Source: Candidatus Iainarchaeum sp.
Lineage (GTDB): Archaea; Iainarchaeota; Iainarchaeia; Iainarchaeales; JACQJH01
DNA: 32,000 nt
Reading direction: 5' to 3'
Assembly (NCBI GenBank): GCA_016205145.1
Contig: JACQJH010000001.1
Span: 420,001-452,000 of the forward strand
Below the pieces are notes generated by a model that saw nothing but the letters and a program-made list of their open reading frames with translations, searched no databases and was not told where the DNA came from. Within the stretch, counting starts at the first letter, position 1. Every line of letters starts with the position of its first letter. The position numbers and the translations under genes are program-made. Below, piece by piece: positions 3,607-30,649 of this stretch.

Positions 3607-3718
3607 CTGTTGCCGCGGCAACGGTATTTATGCTTAGCAATTTACTCGGCGTATCACGCAGTGATACGCCTTGGTTTCGGACCCGGCGGACGAAATCGCC
3701 GCCGGACGAAATCGGCGG
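3607..3718 (+). repeat. structured intergenic repeat, copy 1 (TTACTC / covarying hairpin / TTGGTTTCG-N-ACCC / ACGAAA-loop hairpin, the last module duplicated)
   Basis: Hairpin 0 is CTGTTGCCG/CGGCAACGG (3607..3624). TTACTC is at 3642. Hairpin 1 is GGCGTATCAC-gca-GTGATACGCC, followed by TTGGTTTCGGACCC. Then come GGCGG-acgaaa-TCGCC and GCCGG-acgaaa-TCGGC. Confidence 0.85.
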
Positions 3719-3756
3719 TGGTCGGATTGCCGTTGTCTGAGGAACTGAACGCGCTC

Positions 3757-4548
3757 ATGGTGAAATACCGGTTCAGGCCGAGCAAGAAGATGGCCCAGCA
3801 TTTCATCATCGACGAAGCAGTTGTGCAATCGCTTGTCAGGCACGCCCGCCTGAAACCGGATGACAGGGTCCTGGAGATTGGCTGCGGCACGGGTTTTCTT
3901 ACGCGCGAACTGCTGAAGCAATGCCATGTCCTCGGAGTCGAGCTTGACGACGACCTGTTCGGGCTTCTTGAAAACGAACTGCCCAAGGAAAACCTTGAAT
4001 TGTTCCACGCGAATTTCCTTGAACTGAATGATTTGGATTACAACAAGGTCGTATCGCTGCCGCCTTACACCATTTCCGCTGCGATAATGTTCCGGATTTT
4101 TGCACACGGCTTCGACCGCGCTGTGCTCGTGTTCCAGAGGGAATTCTGCGAAAAGCTTTTGGCAGAGCCCGGTTTCAGGGAGTACAACGCCCTAAGCGTC
4201 CTGACGTCATACCATTGCTCGGCGAAACTCGCGGGCGACGTTTATTCGAATTCCTTTTTTCCGAACCCCAAGGCGGTTTCCTCGACAATCGTCCTTGAAC
4301 CGGAGAAAAGGTTCGGCTTGGCGAAGGATGAGGCGCTGTTCACGGAATTTTTGAGGGCGGTTTTCAGGTTCCCGAACAAGAATGTGGTGAATGCCCTGAG
4401 GTTTTCCGGCCCGTTCCTTGCGAAGGGCTTCGGCCTGGATGAAAAGGCTTTTGCGGAAAAGGCAAAGTCGTCAGGCCTGCCGGAAGAAAAAGTGAACCTG
4501 CTGGAATGCGAAGATTTTGTAGAAATCTTCAATGCGCTTGCGGAATAG
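3757..4548 (+). CDS. rsmA: 16S rRNA (adenine1518/1519-N6)-dimethyltransferase KsgA/Dim1
   Basis: RPSKKMAQHFIID, SAM motif VLEIGCGTGFLT and SLPPYTISAAI. The start is moved to ATG 3757 because the upstream part of ORF 3604.. reads through repeat copy 1. Confidence 0.9.
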   Translation: MVKYRFRPSKKMAQHFIIDEAVVQSLVRHARLKPDDRVLEIGCGTGFLTRELLKQCHVLGVELDDDLFGLLENELPKENLELFHANFLELNDLDYNKVVSLPPYTISAAIMFRIFAHGFDRAVLVFQREFCEKLLAEPGFREYNALSVLTSYHCSAKLAGDVYSNSFFPNPKAVSSTIVLEPEKRFGLAKDEALFTEFLRAVFRFPNKNVVNALRFSGPFLAKGFGLDEKAFAEKAKSSGLPEEKVNLLECEDFVEIFNALAE

Positions 4549-4557
4549 CTTTTTTTG

Positions 4558-4676
4558 ATGTGGCATGTCATCGCGCAACACCACATATTATGCAACTGCT
4601 TACTCGGCGTTCTGCAAAAAGCAGAACGCCTTGGTTTCGGTATGCGCGGTCGAAAACGCGCCCGGACGAAACCGGC
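4558..4676 (+). repeat. structured intergenic repeat, copy 2
   Basis: Hairpin 0 is ATGTGG..CCACAT (4558..4586). TTACTC is at 4600. Hairpin 1 is GGCGTTCTGC-aaaaa-GCAGAACGCC, followed by TTGGTTTCGG. Then come GCGCG-gtcgaaaa-CGCGC and CCGG-acgaaa-CCGG. The element fills the convergent ksgA/deoA spacer and abuts the deoA stop codon. Confidence 0.85.
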
Positions 4677-6214
4677 TAATCTATTTTCTGGATTATGATG
4701 CGCTGCATTTCGGTCATGCCGTCCGATTCCGCGAGCTTTGACGCCAAATCGAGCTTTCTCTTGTTTTCCGCGAAAATTTCAAACAGCTCGTCGCCTTTCC
4801 TGATTTTTGCGCCCTCTTCGACTTTGAGGACGAGGCCGGAAAGCCTGTCCGCGGGGCAGCCTGCCGTGCGTGCAACGCTGATGCATTTGCGCACGTTGAT
4901 TTTGCTTATCACGCCTGACTGGCTTGAAAAGAATTTTTTTGAGAATTTTGCCTTCGGGACTTTCGCTGACTCCGAAGCCTTTTCGCCCTGCGCCTTTATG
5001 ATTTCCCTCATTTTTTTGAGCGCCTTTCCGGACAAGAGGATTTGTTTTGCGTAATCGTATCCTTCGCCCTTTTTTTTCCTGCCGACCAGCTCGAACAATG
5101 CGCCTGCAAGCTCGCAGCTTTTCTGCGCCAAGTTGTCGAAAACTTTTCCTTCCAAAATCATGAGCGCGTGTTTGGCTTCGAGCGCGGGGCCGAAAGCCGG
5201 GCCGCTTGGCGTCGTGCCGTCGGTCAGGAGCACTTCGACTTTTATGCCAAGGCGCTTTCCAACTTCAATGAATTTCTGCGCCATGTCCTTCGCCTTGTCC
5301 ATGCTGCTGATTTTGACGTCCGGGCCGACGGGAAGGTCTATGACCACAAATTTGGCGCCGACGCTCGCCTTTTTCGCCATGACGCTTGCAATGACCTGTC
5401 CCTCCGGGTCCAATGACAGGGGATGCTCGACTTTGATGATTTTGTCGTCGACCGGCGCCAGGTCCAGGGCTCCGCCCCAGACAATCACGCCGCCCGTTTT
5501 TTCCGTAATGCCTGTAATCTGCTTTATGCTGAGGGAAACGTTTGCCAGCACTTCCATTGAATCGGCCGTGCCCGCGGCGCTCGTGATGCTCCTGCTCGAA
5601 GTTTTCGGCATGAACAGGCCGGCGGCCGCCATTATGGGCACGATTATCATTGTCGCCCTGCCGTTGACTCCGCCGATGCTGTGCTTGTCGATGATGGGCT
5701 TTTTCCTTATCTTCAATTGCACGCCGTCTTCCGTGAGCGCCTTTGTCATGGCCGCGGTTTCCTCCAAAGAATAGCCGTTTATGTATACTGCGGATACGAA
5801 TGCCGACAATTCTATGTCATCAATCTTGTTTTCGCCGACGTCTTTCACAATCTGCCTTATTTCCTGCGCGGATAGCTTTTCCCCGTCCAGTTTTTTCTTT
5901 ATGGCTTTCACGCTTTCCGGCCTTGGCACGGCTTTCACTTCAAGTGCCTGGCCCTGCCTTGCCCCGATTTTTTCCCAGACGTCCCTGAACATCCCGATTT
6001 CGTCTTCCTTGACCATGCTGTCCGTCGTGTCCACCAGCGCGGTAATGCGTTTCCCGTTTTTCGGGTTCTTGATTTCAACCCTGTCAAGCGGAAAAACGCC
6101 CAGCTCATTCGCATCAATCCCGTTCAGCACGGCTATGAGCTTTTGCGCGGTGATGTCGAAGTTTCTCGCCTTCAACTGCTGGACAAAGCCCGTCTGGGGC
6201 TGGGATTCAACCAT
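4676..6214 (-). CDS. deoA: AMP phosphorylase (archaeal thymidine-phosphorylase family, DeoA type)
   Basis: 512 aa with the extra N-terminal domain typical of archaeal AMP phosphorylases. Glycosyltransferase family 3 core (DKHSIGGVNGR.., TSSRSITSAAGTADSME) and a C-terminal PYNP domain. Confidence 0.8.
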   Translation of the reverse strand: MVESQPQTGFVQQLKARNFDITAQKLIAVLNGIDANELGVFPLDRVEIKNPKNGKRITALVDTTDSMVKEDEIGMFRDVWEKIGARQGQALEVKAVPRPESVKAIKKKLDGEKLSAQEIRQIVKDVGENKIDDIELSAFVSAVYINGYSLEETAAMTKALTEDGVQLKIRKKPIIDKHSIGGVNGRATMIIVPIMAAAGLFMPKTSSRSITSAAGTADSMEVLANVSLSIKQITGITEKTGGVIVWGGALDLAPVDDKIIKVEHPLSLDPEGQVIASVMAKKASVGAKFVVIDLPVGPDVKISSMDKAKDMAQKFIEVGKRLGIKVEVLLTDGTTPSGPAFGPALEAKHALMILEGKVFDNLAQKSCELAGALFELVGRKKKGEGYDYAKQILLSGKALKKMREIIKAQGEKASESAKVPKAKFSKKFFSSQSGVISKINVRKCISVARTAGCPADRLSGLVLKVEEGAKIRKGDELFEIFAENKRKLDLASKLAESDGMTEMQRIIIQKID

Positions 6215-6327
6215 TTTCGATCAGCTGAAACAAAAACGCCTTTCGTGTATTTAAAGTTTTATTGCGGAAACCGATTGGCTTTTTTTACCGAAAGATTTTT
6301 TTAATTGCCAGGCGTTCTATTCTCAGG

Positions 6328-7350
6328 ATGCCACGGTCTGGACAATCACGGCCTGCCAAGCCGTCGTATGCGCACTTTGTGTCGGTCGCCGACGCCCTGC
6401 ATGAGCTGAGGCGGCGCTTTGCCGAGTCCACGCCAAGCAGGGGCGTCGGTGCGCGTGAAATGCTGGAAGTAGTCCGGCGGCATAACCCGCATTTGTCGGA
6501 GGAAGATTTGCGGCGCGTCGAATTGAATGCGCGGTCAGCCGCGGATGCAAGGCGCAGGCTGCATGCGGTTGCCGGCGTGGAACCGAAAAGCCTTTTCAGC
6601 ATGGCTTTCGGCAAGCCTTTTCCCGCAAACATTCCCGAACAGGCCTTGCAGGTGAGGTTTTCGCCTTATTCTGTCAACTTCATCCTTGACTGCAGTAGCT
6701 TTGATTTCCGGGATTATCTTGGCGATTGGGAGCCATGGGTTCGCGGCTACAGCGCGCCCCGTGCCGCGACTTCTGCAATGGATGGATTAGTCAACGTGGT
6801 TTTTGCCGGTGGAAGGAACGTTTCAAGACACGAAACAAGGCATTCTTTCAACAGGCAGTCCGGCGTGGTCGGACCCCTGTCAGCCGCGCATGAAAAGCAC
6901 CTGCTGTTCCGAGGCGCGGATTCCAAGCTCCTGCGCTCTCTTGAACAGTTCATGAGGGACGAACTTGTGGCAAGAACCGTTGAAAGCGGCCCGTTCCGGT
7001 TCGGGCCGGCAACCTTTGACACTTACGTGAACAACTGTTTCGGCATTCCGTCCACGCCCAAAAAAATGAACAGTTTTGCGCAAAGAATGCTTCGCACAGA
7101 CTACCATTACGTGTCATCGGAAGAATCCTATGACTTGTTCCGCAGGCAATTTTTTCCGGAACAGCTTGCAACTGCGGAAAAGCTCCGCCCAACCATTGAA
7201 AAGGCGGTTGCGGCAATCGCCGAAGCGCAGGCAAAAGGCATTCCCCGGCAGGTTCTCGCAGACTTTGTCGCGATGGTTCCATTGCATTTGATGCCGAGAA
7301 GGCTGCCGAGAATCATTGAGGAATACAGGCGCGCGCATCCGCAGGAATAG
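6328..7350 (+). CDS. hypothetical protein with HExxH motif (putative zincin-like)
   Basis: ORF 6262..7350; the first ATG at 6328 is preferred over TTG at 6262. HETRH is at nt 6829..6843. The protein is Arg-rich and the gene looks GC-richer than its neighbours. No TM segment seen. Confidence 0.5.
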   Translation: MPRSGQSRPAKPSYAHFVSVADALHELRRRFAESTPSRGVGAREMLEVVRRHNPHLSEEDLRRVELNARSAADARRRLHAVAGVEPKSLFSMAFGKPFPANIPEQALQVRFSPYSVNFILDCSSFDFRDYLGDWEPWVRGYSAPRAATSAMDGLVNVVFAGGRNVSRHETRHSFNRQSGVVGPLSAAHEKHLLFRGADSKLLRSLEQFMRDELVARTVESGPFRFGPATFDTYVNNCFGIPSTPKKMNSFAQRMLRTDYHYVSSEESYDLFRRQFFPEQLATAEKLRPTIEKAVAAIAEAQAKGIPRQVLADFVAMVPLHLMPRRLPRIIEEYRRAHPQE

Positions 7351-7357
7351 GCTTTTT

Positions 7358-8062
7358 TCAGCGAAGTTCTTTCGCCAGTTCTTCCGCGGCTTTCTTCACG
7401 TCTTCGGCCTGGTAGATTGCCCTGCCTACAATCGCGTGCCATTTCTTTCCGGCTGCCTTTCCGGAATCAGTGATTTTTCCGCCTTGCGCGACAAGGCCGG
7501 GCGAGTAAAGCGTTGCGTCAACGCCTTTTGACTCAAACAGCTTTTTGTATTCAATGATTTTTTCCGGCTTGTTGCCGGGCACGACAAAGTCTTTCACGCC
7601 CAAGTCGCAGGCAATCTCGTACATGCGTTTCGGCGCCTCATCCGCCAGGAACCCGCCGTCTTTTTTCAGATATGCCTGGTGCGTCATTTCCCCGCCGACA
7701 ATCAGGCCCAAGCCCTCTTCCTGCACCGCCTTAATCCAGGCCGCCTCGGTTTCCGGCCCCGCCTGCGGAAACAAAATCACCGCGTCAACTCCGCTTTGCC
7801 TGCACGCCTGCGCGAACTTTTTTCCCGTTTCAGGAATGTCCGTCGCGGCTTTCTGGTGGTCGTAAATGACCGGCTTGTCCGACAACTGCCGGATTTCCTG
7901 CACGATTTTTTTAAGGCCGTACGGGATTGCAAGCTCGAACCCCACTTTGTATGCGCCCACGCCTTTCACGCCCGATGTCGCGGAAACGATTTCGTTCATG
8001 CGCGCAATGCCTTCGATGTCAAGCGCGGGGATTATCGATTTGTCCTGTTTTACAATGCCCAT
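7358..8062 (-). CDS. pyrF: orotidine 5'-phosphate decarboxylase
   Basis: PALDI, KVGFEL, DHQKAATDIPETG (the DxKxxDIPET motif), SPGLVAQGG and IVGRAIY match OMP decarboxylase signatures. Confidence 0.9.
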   Translation of the reverse strand: MGIVKQDKSIIPALDIEGIARMNEIVSATSGVKGVGAYKVGFELAIPYGLKKIVQEIRQLSDKPVIYDHQKAATDIPETGKKFAQACRQSGVDAVILFPQAGPETEAAWIKAVQEEGLGLIVGGEMTHQAYLKKDGGFLADEAPKRMYEIACDLGVKDFVVPGNKPEKIIEYKKLFESKGVDATLYSPGLVAQGGKITDSGKAAGKKWHAIVGRAIYQAEDVKKAAEELAKELR

Positions 8063-8116
8063 TCCACATCATCCTTTTTGTCTGACTTTTTTTCACAAGT
8101 TATCTGATTATTTTTT

Positions 8117-8521
8117 TTATTTTATTATGCCTTCCGCTCTCAATGCAGCCATCTCTCTTCGGATATTGTAGATTTCCATTGGCAGAATGCGCATTCCGTG
8201 TAGCCGGAGCGTTTCAGTTATCTCTTTATCGGAAATGCCGGGGTTTTCCAGGATAAGATTGCGCATGGCCGCGGCTTTGGTTCCAAGCCTTGAAAATCTT
8301 CGCCCCATATTTTTCCCCGGAACCTGCGGAGCGTTTTCCGGCTGACTGAACCCGTACGCATGCCTTGTAAAACTTACGTCCGACGGCTTTACTTGTGATC
8401 CGCGCGTATTTTCCGGTTTTAACATTTCTGCTATTTGCCGGTCGGTGTGCGTTCCGGCGTGTTGCAGTAGCGCCCGGTGGATTCTGTGCCCTTTTGTCCC
8501 TTCGCTTGGCGGTTTTCTCAT
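8117..8521 (-). CDS. hypothetical protein with two HTH-like repeats (putative DNA-binding)
   Basis: 134 aa. Two similar segments (IHRALLQHAGTHTDRQIAEML and MRNLILENPGISDKEITETL) resemble helix-turn-helix units. The gene is inserted between pyrF and pyrE. Confidence 0.4.
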   Translation of the reverse strand: MRKPPSEGTKGHRIHRALLQHAGTHTDRQIAEMLKPENTRGSQVKPSDVSFTRHAYGFSQPENAPQVPGKNMGRRFSRLGTKAAAMRNLILENPGISDKEITETLRLHGMRILPMEIYNIRREMAALRAEGIIK

Positions 8522-8536
8522 GCTGTTCGGTTCCCC

Positions 8537-9157
8537 TTAGCCTTTTTTCCCCTGCCATTCCTCTGGGTTTTTGAGATAGCTTTTCACGCTGTCGAACTGT
8601 TCTTTTGAGATTTTTTCCTTTTCAAGCAGGACCTGCAGGATTTCGGTTATCGTGAAAACCGCTTTCAGGACATAGCCTTTGCTTTCAATCTGCTGTTTTC
8701 CGCCCTGTTCCCTGTCAACGAGCACGACAATGTATTTGACTTTCAGGCCCGCTTCTTCGAGCGGCGCAATCGCTTCGAACTTGCTTTCGCCGGTCGTAAT
8801 TAAATCGTCGTAGACGAGAATTCGGTCGCCTTCAGCATAATTTCCTTCAATCGTCCTTTTAGTGCCGTAGCCTTTCTGTTCCTTGCGCGGGTAAATCATC
8901 GGAATGTCATTCTCCAAAGAAACCGCGGTTGCAATCGAGATTGCCGCATAAGGAATGCCTGCAATGCGGTCGAATTCGCAGCCGAGCGTGATTTTTCTCA
9001 GTTCAGCCGCAACCTTGTGGAGTATCTGCGGGTATGACACGAGAACGCGCAAATCGATGTAAACCGGGCTTTTCAGCCCGGATTTGAGCGTAAAGTCCCC
9101 GAATTTTATCGCGCCGATGTTGAACAAGTCAAGGCACAGTCTTTCCCTAGAATCCAT
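8537..9157 (-). CDS. pyrE: orotate phosphoribosyltransferase
   Basis: GAIKFGDFTLKSGLKSPVYIDLR and PRPP-binding loop ILVYDDLITTGES. The start is set at ATG 9157, 5 nt after the pyrC stop. The longer ORF to 9235 overlaps pyrC. Confidence 0.9.
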   Translation of the reverse strand: MDSRERLCLDLFNIGAIKFGDFTLKSGLKSPVYIDLRVLVSYPQILHKVAAELRKITLGCEFDRIAGIPYAAISIATAVSLENDIPMIYPRKEQKGYGTKRTIEGNYAEGDRILVYDDLITTGESKFEAIAPLEEAGLKVKYIVVLVDREQGGKQQIESKGYVLKAVFTITEILQVLLEKEKISKEQFDSVKSYLKNPEEWQGKKG

Positions 9158-9161
9158 TTTT

Positions 9162-10490
9162 TCATTCCCCCGTTGTTCCGAAAACGATTTCTTTTCCTTT
9201 GATTTTTTCGCCGAAGCCTTCGCCGTCAAAAACAATCTGCCCGTTCACGACAGTCATTTCCGCCCTGCCTTTGGCTTTCCTGCCGTCGAACGGCGTCCAG
9301 CCGCATTTGCTGTATTGGCCGCCATCCTTTATTGTAAATTCTTTTTTTAAATCGATGATTGCGAAATCGGCGTCGAAGCCTTCGAGTAAGAAGCCCTTTC
9401 CTTTCGCCCTGAACAATACCGCGGGATTTTCACAGCAGAGCCTTACAACTCTTTCAAGCGGAATTTTGTTTGCATTCACTTCAGTGAGCATCAATGGAAG
9501 CGTCGTCTGCAGTCCCGGAACTCCTGACGGCGCGCTCCAGTAATCCTGCTCTTTTTCCCCGGCAGTGTGGGGCGCGTGGTCGGTTGCAATGCAGTCGACC
9601 TTTCCTTCAAGCAGTGCCTTCCACAATCCCGCAACGTCTTTTTTGCTTCGCAATGGAGGGTTCATTTTCGCAAAATTGCCCTTCACTTTCAAAGCCTGCT
9701 CCGTCAGGAAAAGGTGGTGCGGGGCAACTTCGCATGAAACCATTTGCCCGCGTGATTTTGCCTTTTCAACAAGCGCGATTTCTTCCGGAACCGAGGCGTG
9801 CGCGACATGCAGCCGGTTTCCAATGCCGGCCCGTATTTTGAGCGCGTTTTCCACTGCAATGATTGCCGCTTTTTTCGGCCGTATTTTTGAATGGATTTCG
9901 GGATTGTTTTTGCCTTTGAATTTTTCGGCATTTTTCATTATGGTTGCTTCGTCTTCGGCGTGCACCGCGACAACCGTGCCCTTCTGCCTTGCCGCGAAAA
10001 AAACCTTTTTCACGTCGTCGGTTTTGTCGACAAGCAGGCTGCCCGTAGTCGAACCCAAATAGTCTTTTACCCCGCAGATGTTTTTGGCGAGGGAAATTTC
10101 CTGAATGTGTTCATTGCTTGCTCCAAGATAGAGGCCGAAGTTGGCGAGGCTTTTCTTTTGCGCAATCTGCCTTTTTTCCTCAAGCAGTTCGGCAGTGACA
10201 ATGCTCCGCTTGTTGTTCGGCATGTCAAAAAAGCTTGTCACGCCGCCTGCAAGCGCAGCCTTTGAGGCTGTCAGCCAGTCTTCCTTGTATTCCTGCCCCG
10301 GCTCGCGCACATGCACGTGCACGTCAATCAGGCCCGGCAAAATAATCCTGCCATGGCAATCCTGTTGTTTGCCTTCGATTTTGAGCTTGCTTATATCCGA
10401 AATTTTTCCGCCCGCAATCCCGACATTAGCTTCGACCAGGTGGCCTTTGAAAAAAACCTTTCCGTTTGCGAGGACAAGGTCATTTTGCAT
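9162..10490 (-). CDS. pyrC: dihydroorotase
   Basis: Amidohydrolase metal motif DVHVHVREPG, plus ATDHAPH and a C-terminal beta-sandwich. ATG 10490 is preferred over TTG 10526; it overlaps the pyrK stop by 11 nt. Confidence 0.88.
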   Translation of the reverse strand: MQNDLVLANGKVFFKGHLVEANVGIAGGKISDISKLKIEGKQQDCHGRIILPGLIDVHVHVREPGQEYKEDWLTASKAALAGGVTSFFDMPNNKRSIVTAELLEEKRQIAQKKSLANFGLYLGASNEHIQEISLAKNICGVKDYLGSTTGSLLVDKTDDVKKVFFAARQKGTVVAVHAEDEATIMKNAEKFKGKNNPEIHSKIRPKKAAIIAVENALKIRAGIGNRLHVAHASVPEEIALVEKAKSRGQMVSCEVAPHHLFLTEQALKVKGNFAKMNPPLRSKKDVAGLWKALLEGKVDCIATDHAPHTAGEKEQDYWSAPSGVPGLQTTLPLMLTEVNANKIPLERVVRLCCENPAVLFRAKGKGFLLEGFDADFAIIDLKKEFTIKDGGQYSKCGWTPFDGRKAKGRAEMTVVNGQIVFDGEGFGEKIKGKEIVFGTTGE

Positions 10491-12281: not shown

Positions 12282-12408
12282 GGCTTCTCACCACGCAGGA
12301 AACACCAAAAAGTTCAAAAAAAGAATCAGAACAGGTTGCAAAAGCGTTCAATTCAACCCGCAATAATTTAAGCCGACAAAGGTATTTAAGGCTAACTGGA
12401 TTGGCAAT

Positions 12409-12426
12409 GAAGTATTTAATAATTCC
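12409..12426 (+). promoter_or_regulatory. TATA-box candidate for the GNAT gene (near-leaderless spacing)
   Basis: GAAGTATTTAATAATTCC is centred about 28 nt upstream of ATG 12444. Confidence 0.35.
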
Positions 12427-12443
12427 GACAACTTTTATCTGTC

Positions 12444-12965
12444 ATGCCTGAAATTCATGGCGGCCGCAGCCATTTGCCCGAATTTATTCTTCACCCTGAC
12501 AAGCATTTGGGCGGCGGCATTTATCTGAAGCGGGTCACAGCCGGCGAGCATCTCAGGCGTTTGCCTCGGAATCCTGGCGCATCCGCCGCTGAAGAGGATA
12601 TAATCCATATTGCAAGGGCAACTCCTTATGGTTCCCACGGTTCAATGGATTTGCGGCACGGGTTCGGAGTTGACAACACGCTTGTGTCCCTTAGTGGTGG
12701 CAGGTTCGAGGGCATGAAGTCGCTGGAAATCCGCAGGGATATCCCGTCAGAACATCGCGGCCGCGGAATAGGCACGCAAATGCTTGTCGAGGCGGAACGG
12801 ATTGGGCGAGAACAGGGTTTTGATGTCCTTTGGGCTCACACAGCAAGCGATAACCTTGGGGCGCGCAGGTCATATGAGCATGCCAGATGGACATTTGTAA
12901 GGGAATATTTTCAAACTGGGGAAGGGCAAAGAGTGCTGTATGTAAAATTCTTGAACGATCAATGA
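12444..12965 (+). CDS. GNAT-family N-acetyltransferase
   Basis: Acetyl-CoA binding motif RGRGIGTQMLVEAERIGREQG followed by NLGARRSYEHARW. The N-terminal boundary is uncertain. Confidence 0.7.
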   Translation: MPEIHGGRSHLPEFILHPDKHLGGGIYLKRVTAGEHLRRLPRNPGASAAEEDIIHIARATPYGSHGSMDLRHGFGVDNTLVSLSGGRFEGMKSLEIRRDIPSEHRGRGIGTQMLVEAERIGREQGFDVLWAHTASDNLGARRSYEHARWTFVREYFQTGEGQRVLYVKFLNDQ

Positions 12966-16390: not shown

Positions 16391-16570
16391 ATGATTGACA
16401 AGGTCAAAAAGTTTGTTTCCGACGCGCGCAGGGTTTTCATGATTTCGAAGAAGCCTGACGCGCAGGAATTCTCGGTCATGGCGAAGGTAACGGCCCTGGG
16501 CATAATAGTCATAGGCATAATCGGCTTCATTGTCCTGCTGATTTTCACGCTTTCAGGTCTCGGCAAGTGA
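16391..16570 (+). CDS. secE: preprotein translocase subunit SecE (Sec61 gamma)
   Basis: A 59-aa ORF below the track cut-off: MIDKVKKFVSDARRVFMISKKPDAQEFSVMAKVTALGIIVIGIIGFIVLLIFTLSGLGK. It has a single C-terminal TM helix and sits in the conserved ftsZ-secE-spt5 position. Confidence 0.8.
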   Translation: MIDKVKKFVSDARRVFMISKKPDAQEFSVMAKVTALGIIVIGIIGFIVLLIFTLSGLGK

Positions 16571-16686
16571 CTCCGAACCGCGGAGGGCGGCGGTTTCGTC
16601 CGCCGGGTCCGAAACTAAAGCCTATTGCATTGCAATAGGCCGAGTAAGCAATAATGCGTGGTGTCGAAGCAAAGCGGAGACACCAC
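16571..16686 (-). repeat. structured intergenic repeat, copy 3 (inverted relative to copies 1, 2, 4 and 5)
   Basis: Read on the minus strand: hairpin 0 is GTGGTGTC..GACACCAC, then gcattattgc-TTACTC. Hairpin 1 is GGCCTATTGC-aat-GCAATAGGCT (its first pair is a G:T wobble), followed by TTAGTTTCGGACCC. Then come GGCGG-acgaaa-CCGCC and CTCCG-cggtt-CGGAG. It begins directly after the secE stop. Confidence 0.85.
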
Positions 16687-16692
16687 AAGTCG

Positions 16693-16713
16693 CACCCGCC
16701 GGGCGTGACGGCG
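16693..16713 (+). repeat. partial copy of the same repeat (ACCC-GCCGG-gcgtga-CGGC module), opposite orientation to copy 3
   Basis: CACCCGCCGGGCGTGACGGCG closely matches ACCCGCCGGACGTGACGGCG of copy 4 (21716..21735). Confidence 0.6.
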
Positions 16714-16738: not shown

Positions 16739-16891
16739 TTCTTGGTTTTTTTTGTGAAGGCAAAAAAAGCTTTTTGCGTTTCGCTTTTTTTCCAAGGTTT
16801 TTTTTGCAAGGGCAAAAAAAAGCTTTTTGCGTTTCGCCATTTTTCCAAGGTTTTTTTTGCAACAGCAAAAAAAAGCTTTTTAAGCGTTTGC
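16739..16891. repeat. 3 x ~53-bp tandem repeat of A/T-run hairpins
   Basis: The unit is CCAAGG-T8-GC-nnnn-GC-A8-GC-T5-GCGTTTCGC. CCAAGG recurs at 16792 and 16845, a 53-nt period. Within each unit T8GC/GCA8 can form a 10-bp hairpin, or GCA7/T5GC an alternative one. Confidence 0.85.
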
Positions 16892-21562: not shown

Positions 21563-21636
21563 ATTAATTGGGAGAGAAAAGCAGATGGGTACAGCGCGTA
21601 GCGGTGTGCCTGCCGTCGAACCAGCCGGATAAAACG

Positions 21637-21752
21637 CAGGGGTTGCACCCCTTGCAAACCCCTGAAACACGCAATGCTTACTCGGCTTATTGCGAAGCAA
21701 TAAGCCTTGGTTCGTACCCGCCGGACGTGACGGCGAGCCGGACGAAACCGGC
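21637..21752 (+). repeat. structured intergenic repeat, copy 4
   Basis: Hairpin 0 is CAGGGG..CCCCTG (21637..21664). TTACTC is at 21678. Hairpin 1 is GGCTTATTGC-gaa-GCAATAAGCC, followed by TTGGTTCGTACCC. Then come GCCG-gacgtga-CGGC and GCCGG-acgaaa-CCGGC, followed by TTTTT. Confidence 0.85.
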
Positions 21753-21796
21753 TTTTTGGAAAAAGATTTTAAACCCGTTCAAGCCTTATTCTTCTC

Positions 21797-24187: not shown

Positions 24188-24208
24188 TTTTTTTTTGTTG
24201 CCGCAAAA

Positions 24209-27200
24209 TCAGAATGCTTCGGCTGCCTCTTTTATGTGAAATTCTTTTCCGCCTTTGCCTGAATCGCTTTCGCCGCCGTTTTCGTTTTCCTTGTCCTGCG
24301 TGTCGGCCGCTTCCGTTATAGTGCCCTGCTTGAGCCTTATGCCTATGACCGAGCTTTTTTCCTTGTTCAACGCTACGCCGATTATCTGGTCGGCCTGCTT
24401 TATGAGCTGCTCATTGTGTGTGATTGCCAAAAACTGCGACGTCTTGCTAATCTCCTTTATCATTCTGCCAAGTTTGATGGAATTTTCGGCGTCAAGCGCG
24501 GCATCGGCCTCGTCGAAAACATAGAATGGCGCGGGCTCGTACAGCTGGATTGCGAACAGGAATGCGAGCGCTGTAAGGCTTTTTTCCCCGCCGCTCATGG
24601 AATCAATGTTCTGCAATGCTTCCTTGTGCTTTGCCTGGATTATGAGGCCGGCTTCAAGCGGGTTTTCCGGGTTGCTTAAAGAGAGGTTGCCTGCGCCGCT
24701 GAAAAACGAGTAGAACAGCCTGTTGAAGTTCTTGTTGATTGCGCTGAAGCAGTCCATGAAAACGTTTGTCCTTTTGACCTCGATTTTGCCTATCATGTCC
24801 AATACCGCGAGCCTTTCCTGTTCGAGTTTTCCGGATTTTTCGGTTATGTCGGAAACCTCTTTTTTGAGTTCCTCGAACGAGGCGACGGCGCGCATGTTTA
24901 TTGCGCCGAGCTTTTGGATGCGCTTTTCTATTTCGGGAACCCTTCTCTTGAGCTCTTCCAGGTCGAACCTTTCAAGCGGCTTTGTTCCCTCGAACAGTTT
25001 GGATTCCTCTTTGAGGTCGTTTTCCCTTACTTCAAGCCTGCTGTTTTCAATGATGACCTGGTTTTCAACCTGCTCGGTTTTTTTTATCCTCTGCCTGTGC
25101 GTTTCAATGCGCTCGGCAAATGACCCGGCTTTTTCGGAAACGCGTTTCCTTTTTTCCGCCATGCCCTCGCTTTCCTTCTGCGCCTTTTTCAGGCTGTCCT
25201 GCAGGTCCGAGATTTCGGATTGCAGAATGCCGATGCTTTTACCTTCCGCTGAAACCTGTTCTTCGGCTGAAGAATTTTCAGAGCGTTTTGCGGAAATTTC
25301 CTCAAGGACGCCTTTCCTTTCCGAGTCGAGCCTGGCAAGCCTTTCGTTTTGGATGCCTGACTGTTTCTGCTCGTCAAGGCTTACCTGCCTTTCAAGCTGG
25401 GCTATTCTTGATGCAAGCTCCCCGGCTTTGGAATAGCTTGTCTCTGAAAAAAACGCGTCGATTTCAGCCTGCTTTTGGTGCATTGCCTTCCTGTGCCCGT
25501 CAAGGTTTCTTGCATGCCCGTGCATTCTTGCCTCTTTTTCGGCGAGGCTTTTTCCAGAGAGCGTTGAATTGAGCGCTTCAATGTTTTTAGTCGCGGCCGA
25601 CAGTTCGGCTTCAAGCTCTTCGAGGCCGAAAACTTTTTCCCTGTGCCCTGCAACCTCGTCCAAAACCTGTCTGAGCCGCTGCCTTGACTTTTCGGCCTGT
25701 TCGAGCAAGGCTTTTTCCTTTTCCATTTCCTGTTCGGCCAGCTTTTTTTCGGAAAGCCTTTTTTCCAAGAGAATTTTTTTGCGCTCCAGTTCAAGCGGCT
25801 TTTCGCAGACCGGGCAGCTTGAAATGTCCTTTTTGAGTTCGAGAACCGCTTTTTCCGCCTGCCTTGCCGCGGCTTCAAGCTGTTTCAATTTTTCAATCGA
25901 TTTTTTCTGGCCGGCAAAATTGCTTTCAAGCGCTTCCTCCGGGTCGGGGGTCTGCCTCAAAATGTCCGAAAGCCTTGCCTTGAACGCGCGTTTGTGCCCG
26001 GCTTTTTTTTCCGCGCCCTCGGCGCGCGCCTTTTCGGCTTCAAGCTTTTCCCGCACGCTTTCAAGCCACTTTTTTTCCCTTTCCAGATCGATTTCGCATT
26101 TGTGCAGGTTTTCAAGCCCTTCCGCGAGCCTTGCATCGATTTCCTTTTTTTCCCTTTCAAGCTGTTTTCTCGAGGATTCCTTTTCAGAAATTTTTTTGTC
26201 TAATGCGGCCTTCTCGTTTTTGAGTTCGGCGGCCTGCTGCCTGAGTTTCGGCAGAGCCGACTCGATTTTTTGCGTTTCCTCTTCCAGCGTCCTGCGTTCT
26301 TCCAGCAGTGCGGAGGCCTTTTTTTCAAGCCTTTCAATCTCGCTTTCGTTGCGCTGCATTGCCTGCGATTTGCCCCTCACTTTTTCCTCCAAAACGCCTT
26401 TTTTCGCCTTTTTTTCCTCGAGCTTTACCCCGATTTCCGAATACGTTTTTTCGCTCGCCTTCAGCAGTGCTTCTTCAAGCGCCTTTTCCTCTGCTGCCAG
26501 GCCGGAGAGTTCCTGCGCGAGTTCCGAGATTTTCGCCTCGATTTCCGATTTCTCAGAACGCGCCCTGAGGATTTTCGCGTCGTTCTCGGTTTTAGCCTTC
26601 AAAACCCTTTCAAGTTCGCCGAAAATGATTGTAGCCTTGGCCTGCTTTTTTTCGCTTTCAAGGCTGCCGAATTCCATTGCCGCCTTCCTTTCGGCGTCAA
26701 GCTCTTCCAGGTATTTTTCCCTTTCCTTGAGGACAATCCCCGCTTCTTTTATGCGCGAGTCGACTTTTTCAAGCTCTTTCAGGGCTTCCTCTTTTTTTTC
26801 ATCGAATTCGCTTAAGCCCGCGACCTCGTCGATTATTTCGCGCCTCTGCTGCGAGGACATTTCCATTATCCTGGTTATGTCGCCCTGCACGACGATGTTG
26901 TGGCCGGCCGGCTTTATGCCCAGCTCGCCCAGCAGAGAGGAAATTTCGTTGAGAGTCTTTTTTTCGCTGTCAAGCCTGTAAACGCTTTTTCCCTGCTTGT
27001 CGACCATCCTGCTGATTTCAAACTTTTTGTCATTCTCCTTTTCCCTTAACACTATGTCGCATTTCGCATAGCCTTCGTTCGACGAATAGTTGACCAGGTC
27101 AGTGAGCCGGCTTGCGCGCAGCATTTTAAGCGAGGTTATGCCGAAGCCGAACATGAGCGCGTCAAGCAGGTTGCTTTTTCCGCTGCCATTGCTGCCGGCA

Positions 27201-27286
27201 ATGACCGTGAATCCGTCGGCAATCGGCATTTCGGCTTTCCTGAACGACTTGAAGTTCTTGAGCCTCATATGGGACAGTTTTATCAT
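24209..27286 (-). CDS. smc: SMC-family chromosome ATPase with canonical SMC heads, no recognisable hinge, and a CPVC zinc-hook-like motif at the coiled-coil apex
   Basis: N-head: NFKSF, Walker A GSNGSGKSN, LRASRLTDLV and NIVVQGDITRIMEMS. C-head: signature MSGGEKSLTALAFLFAIQ, Walker B FYVFDEADAALD and QFLAITHN. At 1025 aa it is about 150 aa shorter than typical archaeal SMC. Residues ~165-850 read as continuous heptad-rich coiled coil. SSCPVCEKPL is at residues 489-498 (CPVC at nt 25805..25816). Confidence 0.85.
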   Translation of the reverse strand: MIKLSHMRLKNFKSFRKAEMPIADGFTVIAGSNGSGKSNLLDALMFGFGITSLKMLRASRLTDLVNYSSNEGYAKCDIVLREKENDKKFEISRMVDKQGKSVYRLDSEKKTLNEISSLLGELGIKPAGHNIVVQGDITRIMEMSSQQRREIIDEVAGLSEFDEKKEEALKELEKVDSRIKEAGIVLKEREKYLEELDAERKAAMEFGSLESEKKQAKATIIFGELERVLKAKTENDAKILRARSEKSEIEAKISELAQELSGLAAEEKALEEALLKASEKTYSEIGVKLEEKKAKKGVLEEKVRGKSQAMQRNESEIERLEKKASALLEERRTLEEETQKIESALPKLRQQAAELKNEKAALDKKISEKESSRKQLEREKKEIDARLAEGLENLHKCEIDLEREKKWLESVREKLEAEKARAEGAEKKAGHKRAFKARLSDILRQTPDPEEALESNFAGQKKSIEKLKQLEAAARQAEKAVLELKKDISSCPVCEKPLELERKKILLEKRLSEKKLAEQEMEKEKALLEQAEKSRQRLRQVLDEVAGHREKVFGLEELEAELSAATKNIEALNSTLSGKSLAEKEARMHGHARNLDGHRKAMHQKQAEIDAFFSETSYSKAGELASRIAQLERQVSLDEQKQSGIQNERLARLDSERKGVLEEISAKRSENSSAEEQVSAEGKSIGILQSEISDLQDSLKKAQKESEGMAEKRKRVSEKAGSFAERIETHRQRIKKTEQVENQVIIENSRLEVRENDLKEESKLFEGTKPLERFDLEELKRRVPEIEKRIQKLGAINMRAVASFEELKKEVSDITEKSGKLEQERLAVLDMIGKIEVKRTNVFMDCFSAINKNFNRLFYSFFSGAGNLSLSNPENPLEAGLIIQAKHKEALQNIDSMSGGEKSLTALAFLFAIQLYEPAPFYVFDEADAALDAENSIKLGRMIKEISKTSQFLAITHNEQLIKQADQIIGVALNKEKSSVIGIRLKQGTITEAADTQDKENENGGESDSGKGGKEFHIKEAAEAF

Positions 27287-27311
27287 TCAGGACACCCGCA
27301 GCATTCCCTTT

Positions 27312-28118
27312 TCACTCGAAACCGCCATGCTCTTTCCGGATGTAATAAACCGGCAGGACAAGAAAATAATATGCCGTTGCGGCCAGCGCAAAAACGGTTT
27401 CGGCCGCGGCTGAAAGGATTTCATTCCGGCTGAAATACTGCGTCGCAATGAAAGCGCCAATGTTTGAAAGCAGTGCCGAGAACGCGCCCGCCGCGAGCAG
27501 CAAAACGATTATTCCTAAAAGATGCTTTCCTGAGAACTCCCAGGTTTTTTTCAGGCCCTCCTTGAGGCTCAAATCATCGGCTGCAATGATTGTCAGGAGC
27601 ATTGAAAGCTTTATTGCAATGTACGCCGCGGCAAGGAGAAGCACTATGACTGCGATTCCGCCGAAAAAAGCTGACTGCGCCGAAACAAACTGCACGAGCC
27701 AGTACGCAAAAAAGCCTATTGCGGCGACCGACGCGAAAAAAACCGCGATGGCCAGTCCCTTTCCGATGCTTTTGTTGGCATACACGAACGCGGAGGAGGA
27801 CTCCTGCCCGCCTTCAAGGTTTTTTGCGAAATGCGCGTAGAATGCGGTTAACCAGAATGCCAGAACAAATGAAAACGCGAGCTGTATGCCCAGAATTCCG
27901 AGATTGTAGCCGTAAATTGAAATGAAATGGAACGGCTGCTGCAACAGGCCGGTTTCAGGCGCGGCGTTTTGCGCGAGAACGCCGAAAACAAGGTCGCCGA
28001 TCGCCGGCCCGGTCAGGGACAATGAAACGAAATTGGCGAGCGCCACGGCAAGCGCAGGAAAAACCAGCAATGGCTTTGAAGCCACCAATGCGATTGGTTT
28101 GGCTAAGGACTTGAACAT
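27312..28118 (-). CDS. polytopic membrane protein of unknown function
   Basis: 268 aa with about 6 hydrophobic helices. It ends 25 nt upstream of the smc start on the same strand. Confidence 0.6.
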   Translation of the reverse strand: MFKSLAKPIALVASKPLLVFPALAVALANFVSLSLTGPAIGDLVFGVLAQNAAPETGLLQQPFHFISIYGYNLGILGIQLAFSFVLAFWLTAFYAHFAKNLEGGQESSSAFVYANKSIGKGLAIAVFFASVAAIGFFAYWLVQFVSAQSAFFGGIAVIVLLLAAAYIAIKLSMLLTIIAADDLSLKEGLKKTWEFSGKHLLGIIVLLLAAGAFSALLSNIGAFIATQYFSRNEILSAAAETVFALAATAYYFLVLPVYYIRKEHGGFE

Positions 28119-28209
28119 CGGTTTTCACAAGATAATGGTCGGTTTGAATATATTAAGTTTATTGGTTTGCCTTGCTGTTTGCTGTTTGCCGGTGCGAAGC
28201 CCGGCATGG

Positions 28210-28782
28210 TTATGCCGGAGCGCAGACTTCCTGGCCGGCGCAGGACTCGTCCGGCACAATGAATCCTTCCGGGGCCGGGCATTTTTCCGAATAAATGCAG
28301 GACTCATTTGAAACGCTGTCCAGCATTTCCCGGCTTGGCGGGTTTTCGCCGAAGCTTATGAGAATCCTGTCCAAATCCTTTGGCTTATAGCTTCCGAATC
28401 CGCTGTTCGGAACGCCGTTCACGAACATCCGCAGCTTTCCGCCGTTGCCATTGCAGTGTTCGGCAAGGCCGTCATTGAAGCAGTTTTCGTTGAAGCCCAT
28501 TCCGATGCCCGTGAAAAAATCCGCGAGTGTTGCATCCGGGCCGTGGAAATGAATGACGTTCGGGTTGAAGTCGTGGAGGTGCGCAATGGGTGAAAGCGGC
28601 ATTGCGCCGGTGCTCATGAACTGCGCCCTGTTGAAGTCGACCTGCGCCCCGTCAATGAAAACCTTGAAGTCGGCGTGGACGTGGTATGGCTCAGAGCTTT
28701 GCGTCTGCACGCATCCCGCCAATGCAAGGGCCGCGAGCGCCACGCAAACCGGCCACAAAAAATGCGCTGGTTTCAATTCCAC
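28210..28782 (-). CDS. secreted/lipobox protein with His-rich motifs and Cys-rich C-terminus
   Basis: GTG 28782 gives ELKPAHFLWPVCVALAALALAGC, a signal peptide plus a lipobox-like LAGC. The mature part carries YHVHADF, AHLHDF, VIHFHGPD and 4+ C-terminal Cys. The longer ORF to 29037 would overlap the divergent rpl44e start. Confidence 0.55.
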   Translation of the reverse strand: MELKPAHFLWPVCVALAALALAGCVQTQSSEPYHVHADFKVFIDGAQVDFNRAQFMSTGAMPLSPIAHLHDFNPNVIHFHGPDATLADFFTGIGMGFNENCFNDGLAEHCNGNGGKLRMFVNGVPNSGFGSYKPKDLDRILISFGENPPSREMLDSVSNESCIYSEKCPAPEGFIVPDESCAGQEVCAPA

Positions 28783-28977
28783 ACAATCGCCTTGAAATGC
28801 TTTTTTTTGTTTTGGTGTTTTAGTAGTTGAATGGGAATTATCTTTAATGTCTTTTCGCCCGGTTCCGGAAGCCACCAATAGAGTTTTAAACCATCCACTG
28901 CCATATTTTGTAACTGTTTTTTGCCTTCTCCTGGCAAAAAATCTTCGCAAAAAAAGCATTTTTTTAAGGCATTTTTC

Positions 28978-29253
28978 ATGAACATTCCAAAGGTCATAAG
29001 GACTTACTGCAGGAAGTGCAACCAGCACACCGAGCATAAGCTCAAGATTTTCAAGTCGGGCAAGGCAAGGGCCATGTCCGAAGGCCAGAGGAAAAACATC
29101 CAGAAGAAAAAGGGCTACAAGGGAAAATACCAGTTTACGGCCGTTGTCAAGAAGCAGAACAAGAAGCCCACCTTTGTCGCCGAATGCTCTGTCTGCGGCT
29201 CAAAGCACTACCATGTCGTGCCCAAGCGCATGAAAAAAGTCGAGCTGACTTAA
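28978..29253 (+). CDS. rpl44e: 50S ribosomal protein L44e (eL42)
   Basis: MNIPKVIRTYCRKCNQHTEHK...CSVCGSKH is the zinc-ribbon CxxC...CxxC pattern of L44e. The start is set at ATG 28978. Confidence 0.9.
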   Translation: MNIPKVIRTYCRKCNQHTEHKLKIFKSGKARAMSEGQRKNIQKKKGYKGKYQFTAVVKKQNKKPTFVAECSVCGSKHYHVVPKRMKKVELT

Positions 29254-29580
29254 GGGCTTCCGGCTTTTTTAAATGCTATTCTTCATCCCTGAGGCCGTTC
29301 AGCAATTCTGCTTTCGAATAGGATTTTTTCCTTGCCAAGCTTCCAGCCAACGATTTTTCGATGGCGGATTTTTTGGTCCGAATTACGTTTTTCATAAAGC
29401 CACTATTACAATTTATGGGTTATTTTACTATAACTGCTTTGCTTTGGCTTTTTTTCGCAGGGTGGGCGGTAGAGCGGCAATGCATTTATGTATATGTTGG
29501 GGGCTTCTTGAAGTTTTTTTTCCCTTTCTCTGGTCAAGTTGCCGCTGGTTTTTTATACCGCCTCAGCCTAATAGCTTAAC

Positions 29581-30426
29581 ATGGCCGCGCATAATTCGAT
29601 TTTGTTAATCATCAAGCAGCATAACGGCATCGACCAGGTCTCACTGCTCAACAAGCTTTCCCAGAACTATGCGAGCATGAATTCCGCGCGCGCCGCATTG
29701 AGCCGCGCCTTGAAGGACCTTTCAGCTGTCGGTCTTATCCAGAAAAAGGATAACGCGATTTTTGTCACGGACAAGGGAAACACACTAATCCACTCGGAAA
29801 TGAAAAACAAGCTGTTGCTCAAGCTCAACACTTCCATAAAGCAGAAGGACAGCCTCAACCACATCGACGAAATTGTCAGCCAGCTTTCAACTCTCATTGC
29901 AAGGGCGAAGGCCGACTCCGACCTGCTGAAAGCCGCAAAGGGCAGCACGGACTTCTATTTGTCCGACCTCAACGAGCTGAGCGAAGGCCTTGACCGGCGC
30001 ATAAAGCAGTTCTCCTATCTTGACGGCGTCCTCAAAAACCAGATAACTGCATTGCAGGAACTCAACTTCTACGACGCAAGGCAGTTCGAATGGGCTTCTC
30101 AGGCCCTCGAACTCATAAAATCGGTTCCATCGCAGACCGAAGGCAACACTTTCACTGTGGAATGCCTCAACGAATCCTTTTTTGAAACAGTGAAGCAGGC
30201 CTTCCAGCCGAAAGTGCAGGGCAAAAACATAGTGCTCGAAGACCAGTCACTGCCGAACCTGCTCATGCTCTTGCAGGAAAACCATTCGCTCGAATACAAC
30301 ACAGTCAACCTCTATTTTGCCACAATCCGCATCAGAATTTCCTTTCCGCAAATCCTGTTGTTCGGGCCGTACCAAAAGCTCGAGGAACTGCAGAAAGCAG
30401 GTGCCTTGGCAGCGGCAAAAAAATAG
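29581..30426 (+). CDS. hypothetical protein with N-terminal winged-helix (MarR/ArsR-like) domain
   Basis: ILLIIKQHNGIDQVSLLNKLSQ...ALSRALKDLSAVGLIQKKDNAIFVTDKGNTL resembles a wHTH. The remaining ~200 aa are helical and of unknown function. Confidence 0.55.
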   Translation: MAAHNSILLIIKQHNGIDQVSLLNKLSQNYASMNSARAALSRALKDLSAVGLIQKKDNAIFVTDKGNTLIHSEMKNKLLLKLNTSIKQKDSLNHIDEIVSQLSTLIARAKADSDLLKAAKGSTDFYLSDLNELSEGLDRRIKQFSYLDGVLKNQITALQELNFYDARQFEWASQALELIKSVPSQTEGNTFTVECLNESFFETVKQAFQPKVQGKNIVLEDQSLPNLLMLLQENHSLEYNTVNLYFATIRIRISFPQILLFGPYQKLEELQKAGALAAAKK

Positions 30427-30480
30427 TTATTTGCCAGCCTGGAAAACTTTTGGGAAAAGTTTTATCAAAACTCACGGAAC

Positions 30481-30504
30481 AACCCGTTGCTTGCGCAACG
30501 GGTT
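30481..30504 (-). other. 10-bp perfect hairpin with GCAA tetraloop in the tRNA-Gly 3' trailer
   Basis: The minus strand reads AACCCGTTGC-gcaa-GCAACGGGTT, starting 2 nt after the tRNA 3' end. The stem CCGTTGC/GCAACGG resembles hairpin 0 of repeat copy 1. Confidence 0.4.
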
Positions 30505-30540
30505 TTGCGCCCGCCGGGATTCGAACCCGGGTCATGACCT

Positions 30541-30649
30541 TGTTCCGCACGGAATGTCGTCCTTTACAGCAGGAATTTTTGCTGGGGTTTACTCGGCGTA
30601 TTGCAAAAGCAATACGCCTTGGTTTCGAACCCGCCGGACGAAACCGGCG
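30541..30649 (-). other. tRNA-Gly intron (109 nt)
   Basis: It lies between the exon boundaries given above. About 82 of its nucleotides are repeat copy 5, read antisense. Confidence 0.75.
30567..30648 (+). repeat. structured repeat, copy 5 (inside the tRNA-Gly intron, antisense to the tRNA)
   Basis: Hairpin 0 is CAGCA-ggaatttt-TGCTG. TTACTC is at 30589. Hairpin 1 is GGCGTATTGC-aaaa-GCAATACGCC, followed by TTGGTTTCGAACCC and then GCCGG-acgaaa-CCGGC. It ends 1 nt from the 5' splice site. Confidence 0.85.

Follow-up and report, generated by a model that had tools for sequence, protein, structure and literature searches.

A probable REP/MITE-like family of hairpin DNA repeats in a groundwater DPANN archaeon

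We describe a family of short hairpin repeats in a 32-kb stretch of Candidatus Iainarchaeum sp. (contig JACQJH010000001.1, positions 420,001 to 452,000; hereafter the window). The host is a tiny groundwater archaeon, represented by a Candidatus Diapherotrites (DPANN) metagenome-assembled genome. Five copies (c1 to c5) lie in the window, and further copies lie on contigs of other assemblies (L-numbered). On balance, the element is probably a lineage-specific, non-autonomous hairpin DNA repeat, similar to repetitive extragenic palindromes (REPs) and MITEs (miniature inverted-repeat transposable elements), that is mobile or recombining. The evidence is the density of copies, their narrow range, their gain and loss beside essential genes, nesting, copying between loci, association with breakpoints, and tolerance of an insert within a stem. 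This behavior fits a miniature selfish element better than a conserved RNA gene.

The element has a core of ~65 to 80 nt. In the forward (F) orientation, the core reads (TGC)TTACTC, a 10-bp hairpin (H1), the linker TTGGTTTCG, a spacer of 4 to 5 nt, and then H2, which consists of one or two GC hairpins with a CGAAA-containing loop. The complement is referred to as the R orientation. The core is often accompanied by a loosely conserved 5' extension of 25 to 170 nt. The search pattern TTACTCGGN{18,22}CYTTRGTT (that is, TTACTCGG, a gap of 18 to 22 nt, and CYTTRGTT) matches the window five times and had no match in 100 shuffles. All five copies placed there by an earlier, sequence-only reading of the window are confirmed at their TTACTC positions (Table 1). 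A covariance model built on seven copies added no sixth one to the window. GC-rich hairpins whose loop is ACGAAA are confined to element copies in the window, and we therefore reject the idea that they form an independent dispersed repeat there.

Comparison between strains provides the decisive evidence, and the sequence-only reading had foreseen both the MITE alternative and this test of it. By BLAST nucleotide identity, strains ERZ4903055, ERZ4903072, and ERZ28563803 are 90 to 94% identical to the window, and the Ga0066639/ERZ27293400 population is 71 to 82% identical. Presence or absence of the element is polymorphic at five of the seven comparable sites. The c2 site is empty in the close strain L131, where ~9 nt replace ~118 nt. 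The right edge of c2 lies inside the AMP phosphorylase stop codon: the empty allele has TGA there, and the filled one reads TAG and takes its AG from the element. The c3 site is empty in L136 (from the Ga0066639 relative) and L137, where ~165 nt are missing, starting directly after the secE TGA. At the c4 site, strain L140 has 31 unrelated nt in place of ~195 nt. Downstream of the M42 peptidase gene, L135 has a filled site where the window is empty, and L138 (strain ERZ4903072) carries an extra copy that starts 5 nt past the 3' end of tRNA-Gly, where the window has none. Filled sites also vary. In L131, the variant copy at the c1 site has only one H2, its H1 differs (GGCGTGTCG/CGGCACGCC), and the sequence flanking it upstream is unrelated. 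The c5 site, which lies in a tRNA-Gly(CCC) intron, is filled in L138 and L139; in the more distant L127 and L128, the orthologous intron is 44 nt long and keeps only an H2-like CCGG-ATGAAA-CCGG hairpin.

Copies are also nested and have been copied between loci. The same 54-nt insert splits H1 on three contigs that derive from two samples: L135a (L135 1298-1351), L138 (3234-3287), and L139 (1198-1247). Two perfect hairpins (CATGGCAAAATCG/CGATTTTGCCATG and CCGGAATC/GATTCCGG) make up this insert, which the window lacks. L135a and the L138 intron copy come from one assembly and occupy separate loci, and they show only three differences over ~129 nt. The identity has abrupt limits: one is the start of H2, and the other is GAGTA. 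This near-identity with sharp bounds indicates that the core, including the insert, was copied between loci by transposition or ectopic gene conversion. The 54-nt insert may itself belong to another family of miniature elements, one with hairpins as its targets.

Breaks in genomes and assemblies coincide with copies. A Logan contig identical to the window terminates inside c1, as expected when a repeat collapses short-read assemblies. Relative to ERZ4903072, copies lie at the breakpoints of a tRNA-Gly inversion and of lost synteny upstream of the M42 peptidase gene, and in L131 the sequence turns from unrelated to ~100% window identity inside the c1 element. These breakpoints are also what would be expected if the element were a recombination site, loosely like an integron attC, serving either as the target of a site-specific recombinase or as a hotspot of homologous exchange. 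That empty alleles hold replaced, and not simply missing, sequence points the same way. attC sites conserve structure more than sequence, and they are identified by RYYYAAC and GTTRRRY core sites bracketing an imperfect hairpin, together with an integron integrase. However, these R''/R' core words are not present in the alignment at the hairpin feet, no integrase or recombinase was found in the window, and the flanks are core housekeeping genes rather than cassettes. The L131 junction, moreover, could be an assembly chimera at a repeat. We consider a recombination site the least probable of the explanations weighed here.

The family was found only in the host clade. A specific 21-base pattern, searched over the whole metagenome collection, recovered two genuine copies, both from Ga0066639. 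A scan of genome contigs with a loose pattern returned 120 chance matches, none with the downstream motifs, and viral contig matches (L122, which equals L125 and L126, and L141) proved to be chance matches in coding sequence. Relatives at 56 to 58% protein identity had no copy in ~59 kb. Within the window, the local density is ~156 copies per Mb. DPANN genomes are rich in miniature elements, with 105 to 146 per Mb in some (PMC11602168). High MITE loads are thus already documented in DPANN, and the phenomenon is unsurprising in kind. No earlier account appears to exist of the family itself, its architecture, or the tRNA-linked positions that it takes. Literature searches returned no description matching it, and the sequence-only reading, which recognized no named RNA family, agrees with the Rfam results: At the gathering threshold, Rfam 15 matched only 5S ribosomal RNA (rRNA) and tRNA in the window, and searches at E ≤ 10 and E ≤ 1 around c5, c1, and c2 gave no IS605-type, omega-RNA, or small nucleolar RNA (snoRNA) match. 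Neither C (RUGAUGA) nor D (CUGA) boxes occur in the aligned core on either strand.

The stems covary. Across nine copies, 97.9% of stem cells are standard pairs, and 22 cells are changed on both sides. These pairing values were reached by none of 500 column shuffles, and structures slid by 1 to 3 columns pair at 27 to 46%. H1 is 98.9% paired over the nine copies. Over seven copies it is 100% paired, with 5 of its 10 pairs changed on both sides, and covariation in H2 affects three of six pairs. The compensatory changes described in the sequence-only reading are therefore borne out. Its suggestion that they mark a selected fold, and not recent DNA duplication, is not supported in view of the polymorphic sites, the nested insert, the composite shared by two loci, and the assembly breaks, all traits of a mobile or recombining repeat beside genes that can do without it. 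Quasi-palindromes can self-correct in replication, and both this process and recognition as a single-stranded hairpin would be expected to yield covariation, so the covariation is compatible with a mobile repeat. Stem covariation among dispersed copies in one genome is by itself no evidence for an RNA gene.

Two further structural proposals were less durable. The sequence-only reading placed a distinct hairpin ahead of each copy, and only three of eight upstream segments fold better than shuffles. It also proposed pairing between the linker and the last hairpin. The two are indeed complementary in 91% of cells; the pairing sequence is invariant and without covariation, so covariation cannot test the contact. 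As a classical H-type pseudoknot, pairing of the linker with the H2 loop would leave zero nucleotides between the third and fourth strands, and we set this structure aside as sterically doubtful.

Strand asymmetry offers a further clue. All non–Watson-Crick stem positions are G:T on the F strand and none are A:C. They occur in H1 of c3 and of L131, and in the ACGAAAT variants of c1, L124, and L135a; thus, an asymmetry that the sequence-only reading had noted in the window extends to L131, L124, and L135a. With approximately four independent events versus none, it is suggestive only, and it fits recognition of one DNA strand. Folding energy was dismissed as a guide to the functional strand: TTACTC-strand folds beat shuffles (z = -2.2 to -4.5), and the opposite strand folds equally well.

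The sequence-only reading leaned toward an independent family of small non-coding RNA genes on the TTACTC strand. Such a gene would have its own promoter, and H1 and H2 would be the fold under selection. G:U wobbles confined to this strand and the folds that beat shuffles are consistent with such a gene, as are the T5 run that ends c4 and a TATA-resembling ATTTATGC-like word 8 to 25 nt upstream of c1, c2, c3, and L135a. However, the TATA-like word has variable spacing and is missing from c4, c5, L123, and L124, and the opposite strand is just as foldable. The TTACTC strand is antisense to the tRNA in c5, L123, and L138. Copies also come and go between close strains, and H1 tolerates a 54-nt insert. 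An RNA gene of this kind is highly improbable.

The two ends of the element differ. The H2 end is tight, while the TTACTC side bears 25 to 170 nt of heterogeneous extra DNA. Copies in the R orientation begin within stop codons or immediately behind them (c2 and L135b, both TAG|CCGGTTTCGTCCGG, and c3), 1 nt past a splice site (c5), or shortly past tRNA 3' ends (L123, which has a T9 run beyond it, at 4 nt from tRNA-Gln, and L138 at 5 nt from tRNA-Gly). At the three F-co-oriented loci (c1, c4, and L135a), the H2 end faces the downstream gene; in c1 it lies ~10 nt (3717-3726) ahead of the ksgA TTG start. We found no terminal inverted repeats in five full inserted segments, which contain only internal hairpins and weak GC-rich pairs (71 to 89%). 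Target-site duplications, which the sequence-only reading had suggested seeking at insertion boundaries, did not appear: no direct repeat was found at the junctions in four filled/empty comparisons, which involve genomes 6 to 29% diverged, so that short duplications could have eroded. Neither TTAC/GTAA nor any other common junction word was found in the empty alleles.

Several candidate routes of mobilization were rejected. TTAC is the target of IS608, and an IS608-like model with TTAC as a preexisting target fails because the empty sites lack TTAC. TTGAT, the ISDra2 target, is found at the c2 left junction and does not recur at other junctions. No transposase, integrase, recombinase, tnpA/tnpB, or REP-associated tyrosine transposase (RAYT) gene was found among the window open reading frames (ORFs) scanned. 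Two 371–amino acid ORFs near c3 and c5 were considered as possible TnpB. One is FtsZ, and the other is the M42 peptidase gene's antisense shadow; the two are mutually unrelated.

The c5 copy shows how closely the element can adjoin a functional RNA. The sequence-only reading described copies as lying between housekeeping genes and overlooked that c5 lies inside the tRNA-Gly(CCC) intron. A 109-nt intron extends the tRNA gene, undetected by ARAGORN, to 180 nt. c5 fills the first ~60 nt of this intron in the tRNA sense, beginning 1 nt past the 5' splice site, and its TTACTC strand is antisense to the tRNA. Fold prediction still recovers the extended anticodon helix as well as the cloverleaf arms. 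Intron length is 44 nt in L127, 109 nt in the window, and 163 nt in L138. The gene is also inverted relative to its upstream neighbor between the window (30506-30685, minus) and L138 (3172-3404, plus) of strain ERZ4903072.

Several of these observations weigh against a mobile repeat. Mobilization is supported by no transposase in the window, no terminal inverted repeat, and no target-site duplication. Empty alleles hold 9 to 31 nt of unrelated sequence, so these are not clean insertions, and the variable DNA on the TTACTC side likewise argues against clean insertion. Deletion or recombinational allelic replacement could explain part of the polymorphism, and the L135a/L138 pair can be the product of ectopic gene conversion instead of transposition. 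Furthermore, the three independent tRNA-linked copies share one orientation and lie within 1 to 5 nt of a tRNA processing site, an orientation and placement that a purely DNA-level model does not predict.

All three of these insertions put the R strand in the tRNA sense, and it is this strand that might act as a cis-acting or processed RNA module (H2, CGAAACCAA, H1, GAGUAA), transcribed together with the gene or tRNA that lies upstream. Its release would fall to RNase Z in trailer copies and to the splicing endonuclease in the intron copy. The module could serve as a 3'-end stabilizer or terminator, or as a small RNA with a variable 3' tail; mobility would account for its spread, with function a secondary co-option. 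At six of nine independent loci, the tRNA-sense strand is co-oriented with, and abuts, the upstream unit (c2 and L135b at 0 nt, c3 directly after the TGA, c5 at 1 nt, L123 at 4 nt, and L138 at 5 nt), and a T9 run follows L123. The layout, in which a loop complementary to a downstream word is accompanied by a terminal hairpin, a short tail, and variable sequence, recalls the 3' module of archaeal omega-RNA (PMC12558985). Yet the wobbles turn into A:C mismatches on this strand, c1, c4, and L135a are oriented opposite relative to both neighboring genes, and copies are dispensable beside essential genes in strains 90 to 94% identical. Nor is there a promoter of fixed geometry or an omega-RNA, snoRNA, or other Rfam match, and the loop/linker pairing lacks covariation and, as an H-type pseudoknot, leaves no nucleotides between strands three and four. 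We consider a processed RNA unlikely, but the conflict between the F-strand wobble bias and the R-strand tRNA-sense bias leaves the RNA model appreciable weight.

Under the mobile-repeat interpretation, strain divergence sets the time scale on which copies appear, disappear, nest, and are copied or converted from one locus to another. They would persist only where they are harmless in a compact genome, such as at stop codons, in tRNA 3' trailers, in a tRNA intron, or in a gap between terminator and promoter. We infer that a trans-acting enzyme may recognize the invariant flanking words along with the single-stranded hairpin that the TTACTC strand forms, and this recognition would keep the stems paired. 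REP-type elements are recognized in this way, as single-stranded DNA hairpins beside a short tag (PMC3733652). A likely candidate would be a single-strand transposase of the HUH/Y1 type, as for REP/RAYT and IS200/IS605, encoded elsewhere. Homologous recombination between copies could substitute for a transposase, and palindrome self-correction may add to the apparent compensatory changes. It is also conceivable, though quite doubtful, that this is the first REP-like single-strand-hairpin mobile system to be described in Archaea, with insertion or retention coupled to RNA 3'-end and tRNA-processing sites. In such a system, RNase Z or the splicing endonuclease would free a tRNA-sense transcript that acts as an omega-RNA-like RNA, with scaffold and variable tail, or aids propagation.

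Among known systems, bacterial REPs and REPINs are GTAG- or CGTC-tagged palindromes mobilized by RAYT transposases (PMC3733652). The element resembles them in combining a short GC-rich stem-loop with a brief conserved tag next to the stem, and in being extragenic, multicopy, and variable between strains. Compensatory stem changes, mosaics with other modules, strand-specific imperfections, and the lack of terminal inverted repeats and target-site duplications are further shared traits. However, its tag is TTAC-TC (GA-GTAA on the other strand), with neither GTAG nor CGTC adjoining H1, and its unit also includes another conserved single-stranded word (TTGGTTTCG) and another hairpin, whose CGAAA loop is conserved. 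It also differs in its DPANN host, and none of the window ORFs scanned is a RAYT gene, which encodes an IS200/IS605-like Y1 transposase and typically has REPs on its flanks.

The element is also like prokaryotic MITEs, including those of DPANN (PMC11602168), in being non-coding, ~70 to 200 nt long, dense, taxon-restricted, polymorphic, and nested. It departs from classical MITEs in having neither terminal inverted repeats nor target-site duplications. Miniature derivatives of IS200/IS605 (PATE-type) and the TnpB omega-RNA right end (PMC12558985) share its asymmetric ends, subterminal hairpins, and favored strand. The IS200/IS605 derivatives also lack terminal inverted repeats and target-site duplications, and the element has TTAC at one boundary. 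As in the omega-RNA right end, a loop complementary to a downstream word is followed by a terminal hairpin and a variable flank. IS200/IS605 derivatives insert 3' of a fixed word of four or five nucleotides that the empty site also carries. In contrast to the IS200/IS605 derivatives, however, empty sites share no target word, the tag lies 2 nt from the hairpin rather than 10 to 20 nt, there is no tnpA/tnpB in the window, and Rfam gave no IS605-type match; in contrast to omega-RNA, the wobble asymmetry favors the opposite strand.

Rickettsia palindromic elements and Neisseria Correia elements are small palindromes inserted in or against genes and RNAs non-destructively, sometimes giving codons or stops. 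The element is similarly tolerated in or against functional genes and RNAs, although its sequence and architecture are unrelated, and terminal inverted repeats and a TA duplication set Correia elements apart. Archaeal tRNA introns can transpose among tRNA genes and can encode a C/D box small RNA (PMC4090602). The c5 locus shares with them a long intron at the canonical position with an extra structured segment, and intron content varies between relatives. It differs in that the intron ends are conserved without the repeat, most copies lie outside tRNA genes, and there are no C/D boxes.

DPANN genomes are very small and compact, and their tolerance and control of selfish DNA are poorly understood. 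This element breaks assemblies and marks rearrangement breakpoints. It alters stop codons and has made one tRNA intron three times as long. Detection methods that need terminal inverted repeats and target-site duplications, among them probably MITE-Tracker, would probably miss an element that has neither. If a partner enzyme were found, single-strand transposition biology of the REP/RAYT or IS200/IS605 type would extend to DPANN. If the tRNA-linked strand proves to be a processed RNA, it would be a new case of small-RNA maturation that borrows the tRNA machinery.

Table 1. Element copies and associated features in the window (scores for copies are from the covariance model).
Feature	Position	Strand	Score	Parts and remarks
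Copy c1	3642..3716	+	83.6 bits	TTACTC 3642-3647; H1 3648-3657/3661-3670; linker TTGGTTTCG 3671-3679; H2a 3685-3700; duplicated H2b 3701-3716
c2 variable 5' extension	4560..4599	+		GTGG...CCAC hairpin plus ATATTATGC motif
Copy c2	4600..4675	+	81.8 bits	TTACTC 4600-4605; H1 4606-4615/4621-4630; linker 4631-4639; H2a (loop GTCGAAAA) 4644-4661; H2b CCGG-ACGAAA-CCGG 4662-4675
Whole c3-site segment	16571..16740	.		In window, missing in relative; starts directly after secE TGA (16568-16570)
Copy c3	16589..16647	- (TTACTC strand is minus)	84.6 bits	TTACTC 16647-16642; H1 16641-16619; linker TTAGTTTCG 16618-16610; H2 16604-16589
c4 5' extension	21633..21677	+		GGGGT..ACCCC hairpin plus CCCCTGAAACA; fold z = -3.35 versus shuffles
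Copy c4	21678..21752	+	67.7 bits	TTACTC 21678-21683; H1 21684-21693/21697-21706; linker TTGGTTCG 21707-21714; ACGTGA hairpin 21720-21734; ACGAAA hairpin 21737-21752
tRNA-Gly(CCC) host gene	30506..30685	-	43.5 bits (Rfam RF00005)	Exon 1 30685-30650; intron 30649-30541 (109 nt, canonical 37/38 position); exon 2 30540-30506
Copy c5	30589..30648	+	88.4 bits	TTACTC 30589-30594; H1 30595-30604/30609-30618; linker 30619-30627; H2 30633-30648

The surroundings of the copies are core archaeal genes: rpl21e, rpoF, DUF655, ksgA, AMP phosphorylase, ftsZ, secE, and spt5, and further rpl11, rpl1, rpl10, rpl12, and genes for a Lon-like protease, SMC, and an M42 peptidase (window proteins MBI4052803-MBI4052831 at NCBI, locus tags HY394_..., encoded on a 612,963-bp contig). 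c1 lies between the DUF655 gene (end 3585) and ksgA (gene-caller start TTG 3727). Directly after its last hairpin, a GGTGG (window 3717-3729) could be the ksgA ribosome-binding site, in which case c1 may affect ksgA translation; an alternative ksgA start is ATG 3757. c2 adjoins the TAG stop codon of AMP phosphorylase (4676-4678, minus strand). Its 5' extension folds no better than shuffles and is missing, along with c2, from the empty allele.

The c4 copy sits between the rpl12 terminator and the lon promoter. Its layout in the sequence-only reading was right as to the two distal hairpins and omitted the GA spacer between them. Positions 30-125 of L124 match window 21633-21727 at 82% (BLAST), and the remainder of L124 is unrelated. 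Because the match covers only the element and 45 nt upstream, we reject L124 as a c4 orthologue and regard it as an unlinked copy of the same subfamily. This match also indicates that the upstream hairpin of the c4 subfamily belongs to the element and travels with the core.

The segment at the c3 site contains an extra hairpin (CTCCG..CGGAG), c3, a hairpin GTGGTGTC..GACACCAC, and an inverted H2-like module. This module (ACCC-GCCGG-GCGTGA-CGGC, 16694-16712, plus) is located beyond the upstream hairpin of c3 and resembles the ACGTGA hairpin of c4. Two head-to-head elements, of which one is truncated, may make up the c3 insertion. Between secE/c3 and spt5, window 16744-16890 (plus) holds approximately three 53-nt units (CCAAGGTTTTTTTTGCAAnnGCAAAAAAAAGCTTTTTGCGTTTCGC) in tandem, and every unit contains a T8/A8 hairpin. 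The units also occur at L137 2645-2779 and L136 3627-3685, where they are 92 to 93% conserved though the relative's genes are only ~82% identical. They may form an array of bidirectional terminators or promoters.

Elsewhere in the window, a direct duplication (1279-1394 and 1558-1673; 279-nt spacing, blocks 77 to 98% identical) lies in a 185–amino acid ORF (1200-1757, minus) that adjoins the 5S rRNA gene (945-1061, minus), and Logan contig L121 starts at 1640, in the second block. In the Ga0066639 relative, L136 361-1116, which lies two genes upstream of ftsZ, codes for a restriction endonuclease-like protein with an EcoRII-C domain.

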